A stretch of 64,000 nt of DNA from positions 2,848,001 through 2,912,000 of the forward strand of contig OY769902.1 in the NCBI GenBank assembly GCA_963669175.1, in the 5' to 3' direction. Numbering within the stretch: the first letter of the stretch is position 1; every line of letters starts with the position of its first letter. Positions 47,218-51,123 of the stretch are shown here, piece after piece. The notes beneath the pieces are model-generated. The model was not told the DNA's origin. It searched no databases and saw nothing but the letters and a program-made list of their open reading frames with translations. This DNA is from a bacterium (GTDB taxonomy: Bacteria; Electryoneota; Electryoneia; Electryoneales; Electryoneaceae). The position numbers and the translations under genes are program-made.

Positions 47218-47446
47218 GGATATGGAAAAAGGGGACTGCCTCCTTTCCCTGGGGTAAAGCCTTCCCGTTGTGAACATGAACCGGGAAAGGTGGCTGTACC
47301 CTTTTCTTGAGGGCAGGCAGGAATTATACGGAAAAGGGGACAGTTTCCTGTTCCATGAATGCTTCAAGCGTATTCCGCATGAGTGCGAGGAAAAGGATCC
47401 CGTCCCCTTTTCCCGGCAATCTCTATTTTGACGGAAATAAATCGAG
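47218..47446 (+). repeat. Repeat family A, full copy; tail interrupted by IS110 and resuming at 48817
   Basis: Aligns to other copies up to AAATCGAG; AGAACAACTATA resumes after the element. Confidence 0.95.
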
Positions 47447-47533
47447 TTCCTATGTTAAACGACAGGCGCATCAAGTCGTGTTGGAACTGCTATCTTAGCA
47501 GTATTCCATTTTTCCAACACAAGGAGAAGCGCC

Positions 47534-48595
47534 ATGTCGAAGAACCAAGTTATTGCAGCGGACCGTTCATTGTCTATAGGTCTGGATGTTGATTCGCAGA
47601 CTTCTTTCGCCGTTGTGCTCGACACCCAGACTGGTGAAGTGCTCTTTGAGAATCGGATCAAGCATGACTCAGCCGCTTGGGAACGCTTCTTTGCCCGTTT
47701 TCCCAACTGCCGCATGTGGGCGTGTTATGAAGCGGGCCTCACCGGCTTTGGCCTCTGTCGTTACCTGATCGGCCAAGGTGTTGACTGCCAGATCGCGCCG
47801 CCCAGCCAAGTTCCCAAAGGGGCGCAAGCGAAGCAGCAGAAGACCGATCATCTGGATGCCCTTACCTTGGCCCACATGTTCTGGACACCACCTCGTACCT
47901 GGGTACATGTCCCCACAGAACAGGAAGAGGCGGATCGTCAGTTGTCTCGCACCCGTGACCAGGTGATGAATGATCGCGTTCGGGTCAAAAACCGAATCAA
48001 GAGTCTGCTATTGTTTCACGGTTTACAGTCACCGTTTCCGCCGCAACGCTATTGGACAAAGGAATACCGGCGCTGGTTGCGAACGTGTGATTGTCTGGCC
48101 GCGACACGGATAGCCATTGATGTTGCTCTCGATGAGCTGGAGGCCATTGAACAGCAACTCAAGGTGATCACCAAAGCGATCAAGGCGATGAATGCGTCCG
48201 CAACGTATCGGGACCGTACCCAGCGCCTGCGCCAGGTGAAGGGAGTGGGCGAGTTGACCGTGAACGCCTTCGTGACCGAGATGTATCGTCCCGAACGCTT
48301 CGCATCCGGTAAGCAAGTCGGCGCACATCTTGGCTTGACGCCGTGTGAATGGTCAAGCGCCAACACACGCCATATGGGACACATTACCCACTGGGGACCG
48401 TCCCATCTACGAAAACTATTGGTCGAAGCTGCGTGGCGTTGGGTGCAAAAAGATCCGTATGCAAAGAAGAAATACGATGCGATCCATGCCGGGAAAACAC
48501 GGAAAGTGGCGATCGTCGCCATGGCACGAAAACTAGCCGTGATACTGTGGGCCATGCTGGTCAAAGAACAAGACTACAATCCTGCCTGCGTATAA
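47534..48595 (+). CDS. IS110 family recombinase/transposase
   Basis: DEDD residues in GLDVD, YEAG, KTDHLDA; GVG; GLTPCEWSSA catalytic-Ser region; VAMARKLA. Confidence 0.97.
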   Translation: MSKNQVIAADRSLSIGLDVDSQTSFAVVLDTQTGEVLFENRIKHDSAAWERFFARFPNCRMWACYEAGLTGFGLCRYLIGQGVDCQIAPPSQVPKGAQAKQQKTDHLDALTLAHMFWTPPRTWVHVPTEQEEADRQLSRTRDQVMNDRVRVKNRIKSLLLFHGLQSPFPPQRYWTKEYRRWLRTCDCLAATRIAIDVALDELEAIEQQLKVITKAIKAMNASATYRDRTQRLRQVKGVGELTVNAFVTEMYRPERFASGKQVGAHLGLTPCEWSSANTRHMGHITHWGPSHLRKLLVEAAWRWVQKDPYAKKKYDAIHAGKTRKVAIVAMARKLAVILWAMLVKEQDYNPACV

Positions 48596-48639
48596 CCCCA
48601 GCACTGCTGGCAGGTAGGTAAAGCATAGATTGTGATTGA

Positions 48640-48780
48640 ATCGTCCGATGCCATTGGGAACACGCGACCCTGGTAGTTATTCTGTTGCTTGACAACGATT
48701 CGAGTTTAGGGCGCCGCTGTTCCGTGCGAACAAAAAACTTGTGCCACGAGCACGAATAGCAGAACGGCACATGGGACGAT
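48640..48780 (+). ncRNA. Putative bridge/seek RNA
   Basis: Closing stem ATCGTCC.ATG/CAT.GGACGAT; two internal loops carrying target and donor matches. Confidence 0.8.
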
Positions 48781-48870
48781 ACAAAGGCTCTTTACACCCT
48801 TGACTGTTTACATAGCAGAACAACTATAACTTTCTAACTTAACAACTACACAAGCTTTTTAGAGATTACC

Positions 48871-51123
48871 ATGATCACTATAGCCAAGCAAGTCGCCTTA
48901 CCAACCCTGAAGCGAGCGACCCAGGATGCCCCGCATCTGGTGGGACTCCTGTTCGAGCAGGATATCCCTGTTTTACCAGATCCTGACGAGTTTAGACTGG
49001 TATCCGTCGGCCCCCCCAAGCGTATTATCCGGCAATCACCGCGACGGATCGCGCTCGAATTTGAGCCGTTAAAACGATCTCGCACATACAAAATCAAGCT
49101 TCCTGACGGGAAAACCTATCCCTTGCTGCCGGACGGCTTGCTGGATCGCATGGTGTCCGATAAACCGTTTGGACTGACCTGGACCCGAACCGGCGCGATT
49201 CTTCGGCTCTACGCACCACGCGCACGCCGTGTAACCGCACTGTTCTACACCCACCCCGGTGAGAAACCGGCAGAAGAACTTGACCTCGAGTTCAATGAAA
49301 CGGACAACACCTGGGAAGTTGAAACGCAGTTCTTCGCCAATCCGAACCAGCGCTATTATTATGGGTATCGTGTGCTCGGCCCGGTAGGAGATGCGGATAT
49401 TTCACGGACTATTTTCGCCGATCCCTACAGTTGGGCGGTGTGTAAACGGAACAGTTGGCGACGGGAATCGCTGACCGTGGTGATGCCACGATGGGTGTAC
49501 GAACGTCAACCTGCGGCAGGCCATGTTATCATACCGCCACGCGACCTGGTGATCTATGAAAGTCATGTAAAAGACTTCAGTGTTCTGGCCGAAAGTGTGC
49601 ATCAGGATTTTCGAGGCACGTATCCCGGTGCAGTGTATGATGCCGCCGGTGCGCCCATACGCCACATCAGGGAGCTTGGCATTACGGCAATTGAATGGCT
49701 GCCGCTAGCCGATTATGACTTCTATGAATTTCCTTACAATGTGCCAGATTTGCCTGTTCTTAACACGTGGAACCCCTTTGAACGGAACCACTGGGGCTAC
49801 ATGCCGGCGTACTGGTTTGCCCCGGAGGCACGCTATGCTACCGGGCAATCCACGCAGGATGGCGACTGGATTGGTGTGGATGGCCGCCAGGTACTCGAGC
49901 TGCGGGAGATGATCCGGAAACTGCATGAGGCCGGAATTGCCGTACTCGTAGATGTGGTGTACAACCATGTCGCCCAGTACGGCCAGAACCCGATTCGCCA
50001 GGTAGATCCGTTCTACAGCCTGCGTCACTCGAAAACCGGGAGGCGTGTCGGTGATTCCGGGTGCGGGAATGATCTGGCCACCGAACGTCCCATGATGCGA
50101 CGACTGATTGTAGAATCCTTAAAGCACTGGGTGAGGTTTTACGGTGTTGACGGATTCCGTTTTGACCTGGCCGGCCTGATTGATGAAGGCACACTTGACG
50201 CTATCACTGTCGAGCTGAAAAAGGAATTACCCCAGATACATCTGATCGCCGAACCCTGGGGCGGTTATTACGATAAGCAGCGTTTCTCCAAACGTGACTG
50301 GGCGTCCTGGAATGACCTGTTCCGCGATGGCATCAAGGGCTGGGAACCGGGGAAAGTGGATGCCTTCCTGTTCGGGAAGTGGCGTAGCGGTGAGAATGAG
50401 AAAACATTGGTTCGACACGCCAGCGGGAACCTGTGGAAAGACGGCGGCCCGTTCAAACGTGAGACGCATACGGTAAACTTCCTTGCCTGCCATGATGGTT
50501 ATACCCTCGGTGACTATGTCCGCCTGGCGGGGGACTGGCTGAAAGACGTGAAACCGAAAGAGCGCGAGGACTGTTACCGGCTTCCTGAGAAAGACTGGCG
50601 TCGAATCCGGTTGGGACTCTTTGTGCTCCTGACCAGTCGTGGCCCGGCCATGATTCACCAGGGCGATGAATGGGGATTCGCAAAATGGGTGGATGCCGAT
50701 GAGGTCAGCGGGCTGAAAGAAGGCAAACTCGACCACGACAGCTATAACAAGGATACCCGCACCAACTGGTTGGATTGGGACTGGCGAGGGCGAAAACATT
50801 GCAAGACATTATATGAGTATACACAGGGATTGATCGCACTGCGGAAACATTACCCGGCGTTACGTATCGCAAGGCGTGATGATGTGGATGTGATGGCCTC
50901 GCCGCTGGAATTCGCGTTTGGTTACAGGCTCAAGGTGGGACGTGATGACCTGATGATCCTGATGAACGGTGACCAGAAAAAAGAGGCCGTCTTCAACCTG
51001 CCTCGTGGACGCTGGCTATTGCTGGCCAATCATCATCGTGTTGCGGTTCCGGATGGAATGCAGGTGGTTGAAGAAAGTGTCAGTGTTCCGTCCGTTGCTG
51101 GGGTAGTACTGTTGAAAATGTGA
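48871..51123 (+). CDS. GH13 pullulanase/isoamylase-type debranching enzyme
   Basis: IYESHVKDF, WGYMP, DVVYNH, SGCGND, DGFRFDLA, AEPW, CHDG. Confidence 0.92.
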   Translation: MITIAKQVALPTLKRATQDAPHLVGLLFEQDIPVLPDPDEFRLVSVGPPKRIIRQSPRRIALEFEPLKRSRTYKIKLPDGKTYPLLPDGLLDRMVSDKPFGLTWTRTGAILRLYAPRARRVTALFYTHPGEKPAEELDLEFNETDNTWEVETQFFANPNQRYYYGYRVLGPVGDADISRTIFADPYSWAVCKRNSWRRESLTVVMPRWVYERQPAAGHVIIPPRDLVIYESHVKDFSVLAESVHQDFRGTYPGAVYDAAGAPIRHIRELGITAIEWLPLADYDFYEFPYNVPDLPVLNTWNPFERNHWGYMPAYWFAPEARYATGQSTQDGDWIGVDGRQVLELREMIRKLHEAGIAVLVDVVYNHVAQYGQNPIRQVDPFYSLRHSKTGRRVGDSGCGNDLATERPMMRRLIVESLKHWVRFYGVDGFRFDLAGLIDEGTLDAITVELKKELPQIHLIAEPWGGYYDKQRFSKRDWASWNDLFRDGIKGWEPGKVDAFLFGKWRSGENEKTLVRHASGNLWKDGGPFKRETHTVNFLACHDGYTLGDYVRLAGDWLKDVKPKEREDCYRLPEKDWRRIRLGLFVLLTSRGPAMIHQGDEWGFAKWVDADEVSGLKEGKLDHDSYNKDTRTNWLDWDWRGRKHCKTLYEYTQGLIALRKHYPALRIARRDDVDVMASPLEFAFGYRLKVGRDDLMILMNGDQKKEAVFNLPRGRWLLLANHHRVAVPDGMQVVEESVSVPSVAGVVLLKM

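Follow-up and report, generated by a model that had tools for sequence, protein, structure and literature searches.

RNA-guided recombinases of the IS110 family are under development as genome-writing tools, and most of the work has been done on a few orthologues. Guide RNAs of the kind considered here are already known (Durrant 2024, PMC11208160; Siddiquee 2024, PMC11187229). The RNA of IS621 is described as having two loops with two guides each, by which both strands are read; all four guides cover a shared core dinucleotide, and handshake bases lie directly 3' of the short guides (PMC11208160, PMC11208158). In IS1111-type elements such as ISEc11, ISPa11 and ISKpn4 the DEDD transposase has about 340-350 aa (PMC11187229, PMC11208160), a long non-coding region lies 3' of the gene, and in the seekRNA the complement of the top strand stands 5' of that of the bottom strand, the two matches overlapping in the target (PMC11187229). 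A right-end bridge RNA was predicted by Durrant in 93% of IS1111 elements, the donor-binding bases often lying in a multiloop rather than in a simple internal loop (PMC11208160), and a long downstream non-coding region is reported for some IS110-group elements too (PMC11187229). In ISPpu9, an IS110-family element inserted in extragenic repeats, a small-RNA gene, Ssr9, follows the transposase gene (Pares-Guillen et al. 2025, PMC12288879).

The window, by which we mean the whole 64,000-nt stretch of bacterial DNA that was analysed, holds a locus comparable to these systems. Positions ~48636-48784 (+ strand) very probably encode the guide RNA of an active IS110-family element of IS1111-type layout, with a target loop and a donor loop. 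The IS1111-type traits given above recur here: a DEDD transposase of like length, the long non-coding region 3' of the gene, the order of the two complements with their overlapping matches, and donor-binding bases in a multiloop. Insertion into dispersed repeats and subterminal inverted repeats are likewise shared with that type, and -35 and -10 halves stand at the two ends, where they would form a promoter at the junction of a circle. Subterminal inverted repeats of 7-17 bp are a trait of the IS1111 group, and the window's element has repeats of this size. It differs from described IS1111-type elements in its protein (those of IS4321 and IS5075 are 25% identical, in a partial match over 71% of the query), in the Ala that follows the conserved Ser (SA), in the shortness of its inverted repeat and in having target and guide sequences of its own. 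The nearest named insertion sequences are ISEc45 (31%) and IS5708 (29%). By layout and inverted repeats the element resembles the IS1111 type; with a pairwise protein identity to named elements of at most 31%, its assignment to a subgroup is at most tentative.

The IS621 traits listed above recur at this locus, one of the four guides, the right donor guide, being a weak candidate. It is unlike IS621 in that the RNA lies 3' and not 5' of the gene and in that the order of the guides is reversed relative to the RNA-sense strand, on which the core reads AG, the equivalent of CT on the other strand. The proteins of IS621 and ISCro4 match that of the window in the C-terminal domain only (E about 3e-9). 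No new kind of system is revealed; the element itself is new, and its kind is known. It offers an unusually clean natural case, with 12 intact copies, guide positions that can all be read directly, and a set of at least 36 relatives from which one can see the RNA positions that follow the target, the donor and the handshake; it also adds a compact candidate of 353 aa from a little-studied phylum, with what may be a footprint of strand exchange within the genome.

The insertion sequence, its relatives and its target sites

The genome consists of a single 5.45-Mb contig, in which a search with the element found 12 copies of 98-100% identity, all 1370 bp long. The ends were set to the base by aligning the 12 copies together with their flanks: identity breaks off at 47447 and 48816, and a 2-nt AG core lies on the flanks. 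Across the copies the left side reads ...TCG-AG|TTCCTATG up to the element start and beyond, and the right side ...CATAGC-(A/G)G|AAYARCTAT; in the window the junctions are AAATCG-AG|TTCC and CATAGC-AG|AACAACTATA. Since this alignment fixes the ends, the flanks against which the first-pass annotation had matched its guides are the true junctions. The order is that of a short left end (87 nt to the ATG), the transposase gene, a long 3' non-coding region (221 nt from the stop codon) and the right end. The subterminal inverted repeats, CTATGTTAAAC and the reverse complement of GTTTACATAG, agree at 10/11 with one indel; they were read by inspection and were not reported by an ungapped repeat finder. 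Judged by its 12 nearly identical copies, in which all frames are open, the insertion sequence is probably active. The coordinates of all features are collected in Table 1.

Table 1. Features of the element, its flanks and its proposed guide RNA (window coordinates)
Feature	Position	Strand	Basis or remark
Left part of ~155-bp dispersed repeat	47302-47444	+	last 6 nt (47439-47444), AAATCG = left target (LT)
Left core dinucleotide AG	47445-47446	+	AG in 12/12 copies and in 36/36 elements, the window's included
Insertion sequence body	47447-48816	+	12 copies of equal length; identity ends there
Right-donor end (RD) TTCCTAT...	47447-47460	+	holds left subterminal inverted repeat CTATGTTAAAC (47450-60) and -10-like TATGTT (47451-56)
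5'-UTR hairpin over ribosome-binding site, just 5' of ATG	47465-47533 (arms 47465-86, 47512-33)	+	22-nt arms, 77% complementary
Transposase/recombinase, 353 aa	47534-48595	+	Pfam DEDD_Tnp_IS110 + Transposase_20; NF033542
Proposed bridge/seek RNA	48636-48784	+	closing helix P1, 48636-50 / 48770-84
Helix P2, 5' strand, closing the target loop	48657-48673	+	pairs with 48705-48723 in the centroid fold
5' target guide TAGTTATTCT (right-target guide of the first-pass annotation)	48674-48683	+	reverse complement of core + AATAACTA
Inner hairpin GTTG-CTTGA-CAAC, target loop	48684-48696	+	4/4 pairs changed on both sides in relatives
3' target guide GATTCGAG (48697-704) + handshake TT	48697-48706	+	same sense as LT + core; TT = RD start
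Putative right donor guide AACT	48736-48739	+	complements core + TT; 4 nt, weak
Inner hairpin TGTGC-CACGA-GCACG, donor loop	48740-48754	+	helix 3; 96% of cells paired
Left donor guide AATAGCAG (48755-62), then AAC	48755-48765	+	matches left-donor end (LD) + core 7/8; AAC = first three right-target bases
-35-like TTGACT	48800-48805	+	17 nt from TATGTT 47451-56 if the element is circular; spacing counted
Right end	48806-48818	+	subterminal inverted repeat GTTTACATAG (48806-15), left-donor end CATAGC (48811-16), right core (48817-18)
Right target (RT) AACAACTATA	48819-48828	+	last 10 nt of target repeat

In the contigs of a DNA sequencing run the element is collapsed to one contig of 1373 nt at a depth of 287, as against 19.8 in the flank (X1), and no circle-type joint from 48818 to 47447 was found among the matches listed from these contigs. 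A search of sequencing runs turned up no RNA run of the organism, and a metatranscriptome (X4) gave just two 151-nt pieces, from a relative. The sequences TTGACT and TATGTT would, in a circle, make a junction promoter of the sort expected in the family, and of the 36 ATAGC-type loci with two copies of the motif, 24 have CTTGAC just before the right end. In the window copy, the flanking repeat provides a TTGACG exactly 17 nt 5' of TATGTT (47428-47456), an arrangement that resembles a promoter directed toward the transposase gene; at this place most other copies of the repeat read ATGACG or ATGTCG.

The transposase matches the NCBIfam model NF033542 "IS110 family RNA-guided transposase" with 247.8 bits (cut-off 140) and PF01548 and PF02371 of Pfam above their cut-offs, and its open reading frame is intact in all 12 copies. 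In an alignment of 6 relatives E66, D105, D108 and S275 are invariant. The first Asp of the catalytic DEDD set, which belongs to the RuvC-like domain, lies in GLDVD, near residue 19-21, and its column falls short of invariance solely because one alignment row is incomplete. The conserved Ser of the G--P----S motif is present and is followed by Ala instead of Gly (SA, not SG/TG). Upstream of the gene, a complement covering the ribosome-binding site, comparable to the hairpin of the window's element, was read by eye in clade-2 relatives, and many relatives have, close to the left end, a GGCCGTTCCTCC that is perfectly complementary to GGAGGAACGGCC at the start codon. The CTGCTAT at 47487-93 in the 5' UTR, the reverse complement of the donor 7-mer, occurs in 2 of 36 relatives and was dismissed as a chance match.

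The nearest relatives found are 47-52% identical in protein sequence, which, together with the distance to named insertion sequences, makes the first-pass annotation's "poorly studied lineage" a fair description. The genome collection yielded 3 loci, one of which, from the phylum of the window's genome, is labelled Calditrichaeota; 7 of 79 genomes of the phylum gave a match at E <=1e-20, and metagenomes contributed 80 loci of 27-52% identity. Both ends could be fixed in 36 elements of 1323-1565 bp, the window's included, and the left ends of the ATAGA clade are not reliably fixable. Close relatives have the left end in common with the window's element. In two of the 36 the right core is GG. 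Three side observations concern where relatives are inserted. The left flank of the metagenomic relative L056, GGCCTCATAGC-AG, equals the right end of an element of this kind, a head-to-tail arrangement like that of a tandem dimer or of the junction in a circle. The right flank of L066, ATGGCGGCCCTCG, is identical to the stretch of its own RNA just after the 3' target guide, and this copy appears to sit beside or inside a fragment of its own RNA region. Eleven metagenomic clade-2 relatives have the left flank (T/C)GCTCAG and the right flanks CATGAC, AATGAC or GGTGAC (ATGACT in one), a pattern that hints at a conserved target which they share.

Seven of the 12 copies are inserted 10 bp before the end of a dispersed repeat of ~155 bp. 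The insertion point is reached by 79 copies of this repeat, 7 occupied and 72 empty, and the empty ones read ...AAATCGAG|AACAGCTATA or near variants. Three copies lie at the end of a second repeat family made of 18-bp units, in which empty sites read TTCG-GG-AACNNCTATA, and the remaining two lie in unique sequence. Over both families there are ~90 natural candidate sites, 10 of which are occupied. The ~155-bp repeat (47302-47446 + 48819-48828 in the window) has internal hairpins and ends ...GGAATAAAATCGAG AACAGCTATA. The hairpins of the flanking repeat (47227-47305, 47329-47414) drew weak miRNA-like Rfam matches alone, which are put down to chance. The second family opens with CTGAAGCAGGCT, after which come 18-bp units in tandem, one or many in number (GAATCAGCAAAAACTTTC and variants), and it closes with the sequence of its empty sites, as in G000 at C1:1214270-1214430, 2430164-2430400 and 4207987-4208110.

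The proposed downstream RNA and its target loop

The first-pass annotation had read the region downstream of the gene as an RNA of the IS110/IS1111 type, with two parallel loops inside a closing stem, and this reading is borne out by the insertion sites, by the guides of related elements and by the helices. A check of the sequence found closing stem, guides and hairpins all in place and the match counts of 9/10, 6/8, 4/4 and 7/8 correct; the 5' guides end in CU and the 3' guides in AG, as had been noticed. The closing stem, ATCGTCCgATG (48640-48650) with CATgGGACGAT (48770-48780), is part of 15-nt arms that the repeat finder gives as 87% complementary. In the centroid fold P1 surrounds two arms, of which one is the long interrupted helix P2 and the other the donor hairpin, with its flanking guides in the multiloop. 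Over the ensemble P1 is paired (0.13-0.23 unpaired) and the guides are mostly unpaired (0.58-0.80), which agrees with the expectation that they would be single-stranded.

Helix conservation was evaluated in an alignment of 20 sequences. In P2 and the two hairpins 83.4% of the cells are paired and 14 of the 19 pairs are changed on both sides (8 of 10 in P2); none of 500 shuffles reached the observed values and slid controls gave 29-53%, with the reservation that the tested helices were derived from the same sequences, so that the test favours them. G-U pairs are more frequent than A-C pairs (36 vs 14), which favours the + strand. When RNAalifold was run on plain MAFFT alignments it recovered just 6 and 11 pairs because the ends are out of register, and P1 is for this reason not countable column by column. 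Closing helices of 7 bp, taken locus by locus, are expected by chance in the search space.

The target loop contains two guides, one for each strand, whose matches overlap where the element is inserted, an interpretation well supported by comparison of the 12 sites and the relatives. The 5' target guide, with the core read as AG, matches the sites at 10/10 in three, 9/10 in four, 8/10 in four and 7/10 in one, and the 3' target guide matches as TTCGAG (6/6) at four sites and as TCGAG (5/5) at six. In the window the two guides together match at 16 of 18 positions, a value higher than in any of 300 shuffles of the non-coding region that preserved dinucleotides (maximum 14). The guides also find the sites in the genome: after removal of the 12 insertions in silico, every position on both strands (~10.9 million) was scored against the guide-implied 16-mer, and 669 positions reached at least 11/15. 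Within these 669 are 11 of the 12 insertion sites: a score of 13 was given to 6 positions, 12 to 71 and 11 to 592, and these groups include 2, 5 and 4 insertion sites, respectively.

Across the 36 elements the RNA varies at these same positions in step with the flanks of the respective element, which is the guide-target co-variation that the first-pass annotation proposed to look for. The position of the 5' target guide is complementary to the right flank of the respective element (11/11 in L047, 10/11 in L051, 9/11 in L026, L050 and L048, and runs of 9 in L078 and L062), and the last 4-6 nt of the 3' guide track the left flank. In a cross test an element's own RNA scored on average 14.3/19 on its own target and the RNAs of elements with unrelated targets 11.6, and the own RNA beat all unrelated-target RNAs at just 10 of 30 loci; the window RNA scored 15, and the window target scored at most 12 on 28 other RNAs. 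The handshake follows the same pattern. In 22 of 32 distinct loci, the dinucleotide that follows the 3' target guide is the one with which the donor begins (TT/TT 10, GT/GT 6, AT/AT 6), as against a mean of 8.1 in permutations, none of which reached 22 in 5000, figures that overstate significance and independence because the relatives have common ancestry. In the window the handshake is matched in both loops (TT = TT in the target loop, AAC = AAC in the donor loop).

The right-target match had been called unusually long, and this we do not retain. In relatives, runs of ~7-11 nt are seen by eye at the same position. With the opposite strand as reference (core CT), the counterparts in IS621 are its 9-nt LTG for the 10-nt guide and its RTG for the 6-nt guide, and by that correspondence a 10-nt match is normal; the short guide of IS621 is described as 4 nt and extendable (PMC11208160, PMC11208158).

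These results bear on whether the region could be an ordinary 3' UTR with a terminator, its matches arising by chance or from repeat content. In favour of this, the fold energy is unremarkable (z = -1.59 for 141 nt and -0.36 for 221 nt); a terminator-like site was called on the minus strand (48753-48741), and the Rfam search found no family that matches the RNA region. The shuffles of the target loop, the recovery of 11 of 12 insertion sites genome-wide, the co-variation across the 36-element set and the compensatory changes in the helices nevertheless make this the least credible of the explanations considered. Scarcely better placed is the idea that the RNA is a passenger that uses the transposase and is not needed for transposition. 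It takes its model from Ssr9, which in the account of ISPpu9 is dispensable for transposition, moves as a separate module and is also found alone in the genome (PMC12288879). At the present locus, by contrast, the RNA region is carried by all 12 copies and varies among them at a single base (48739, T in 9 and C in 3), and its loops spell out the insertion sites. Moreover, an own-genome search with 47300-48900 returned no solitary copy of the RNA region; its non-copy matches were confined to positions 1-147 of the query, i.e., to the target repeat.

The proposed donor loop

The second loop was proposed to read the ends of the element itself, and here the two guides fare differently: the left one co-varies with the right end of the element across clades and is supported, and the right one, AACT, is a weak candidate of 4 nt. 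The left donor guide AATAGCAG matches the right end CATAGC-AG at 7/8. With both guides the donor-loop match is 12/16, which 85 of 1000 shuffles reached, and it is thus not significant alone. Relatives are more informative. Among the 76 loci with at least 250 nt downstream, guide and element end have the same 5-mer in 63 (ATAGC in 36, ATAGA in 22, ATAAC in 3 and ATAGG in 2) and 13 gave no guide/end pair, a count in which disagreements could not appear because the search for guide/end 7-mers required equality. In the ATAGC clade guide and end are invariant (36/36), so that no co-variation exists inside that clade; as judged across clades, the left donor guide co-varies with the right end in four variants.

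At the position of the right donor guide, directly 5' of the donor hairpin, relatives have longer complements to the core and right-donor end: CTAACT for TTAGC (6/6), TACCT for GTATC (5/5), CATACCT for TTATG (6/7, six loci) and ATTAACT for ATAAT (6/7). It is only because of these 5-7-nt complements that the 4-nt AACT is credible. Two other candidates were rejected. GGAAC (48657-61) lies within helix P2, where it pairs with 48718-23, and CGAAC (48727-31) is kept in relatives with differing donor ends and was accordingly regarded as a scaffold motif. The donor loop would also have its handshake, the base next to the donor guide on its 3' side being the same as that which opens the right flank in 19 of 32 loci, as against 13.1 expected; 24 of 5000 permutations reached 19, a figure that common ancestry again renders too favourable. 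Overall the case for the donor loop is half supported, with the left guide sustained by the comparison across clades and the right guide weak when taken alone.

A narrower reading would confine guiding to the target arm, acting as a short seekRNA of ~80-100 nt, with the copy of the element end in AATAGCAG being a DNA-level feature (an internal end copy bound by protein) or part of a longer precursor. Siddiquee et al. describe RNA species of two size classes, short ones of 82-96 nt and long ones of 148-172 nt (PMC11187229), and the non-significant donor-loop match, the 4-nt right guide and the invariance of guide and end in the ATAGC clade also speak for that reading. We regard it as improbable, though less so than the 3' UTR and passenger readings, given that the internal and end 7-mers change together across clades in four variants and that the donor hairpin, 96% paired, nearly duplicates the target hairpin in the majority of relatives. 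The bases after the donor guide match the first base of the target more often than expected, and the 5-7-nt complements at the 5' guide position likewise argue against it. An RNA with both a target and a donor loop is the reading followed below.

Proposed strand exchange and the asymmetry of the core

In the proposed mechanism the closing helix of the RNA would hold two arms of the same layout, arm 1 with the target loop and arm 2 with the donor loop. The 5' target guide UAGUUAUUCU would pair with the strand bearing AG + AATAACTA and the 3' target guide (GA)UUCGAG with the opposite strand of TTCG + AG, and the UU after the latter would provide handshake bases that match the incoming donor end. 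In the donor loop AAUAGCAG would match the right end of the element with the core, and AAC after it the target, and the weak short 5' donor guide ..AACU would match the core with the first two left-end bases. The RNA-guided recombinase would then join a circular copy (CATAGC-AG-TTCC) to a target TTCG-RG-AAYARCTA, the strands being exchanged at the dinucleotide. From what is known of the family one would expect the RNA to be produced and to bind the protein, a circle to be the intermediate and a promoter to arise at its junction. Programmability, the "reprogrammable" of the first-pass annotation, is likewise an expectation drawn from the family.

The core differs between the two sides of the copies. 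On the left the core is AG throughout; on the right 8 copies have AG and the other 4 GG. In the second repeat family ~15 of 20 empty sites, counted by reading, have a GG core; its three occupied sites and one unique site carry AG on the left, as in the donor, and GG on the right. The same left-AG/right-GG pattern is carried by L048 and L049 and, by eye, L102, and the reverse, GG on the left and AG on the right, occurred neither among the 12 copies nor among the 35 related loci. The base that tolerates A or G in the targets corresponds to the T described as nearly invariant in IS621 (PMC11208160, PMC11208158).

If both strands were exchanged over a 2-nt overlap and the mismatches segregated at random, both patterns should be found. 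The bias, in what are small numbers, would fit insertion being fixed through the exchange of a single strand, the product then being completed by replication; we consider this a possibility worth stating and on balance a doubtful one. One-strand exchange has been proposed for an IS110 element in a 2025 preprint (10.1101/2025.10.25.684509). A crossover point outside the first core base is an alternative that may lead to the same bias. Should the one-strand reading prove true, a disputed step of bridge recombination could be settled from genome sequences alone, and the answer could be extended to IS1111-type elements. The base that would face the variable core position in the donor loop is 48739, the single variable base of the RNA. 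It is C in the copies L003, L006 and L009, and the two changes, C at 48739 and GG as the right core, occur together in L009 alone.
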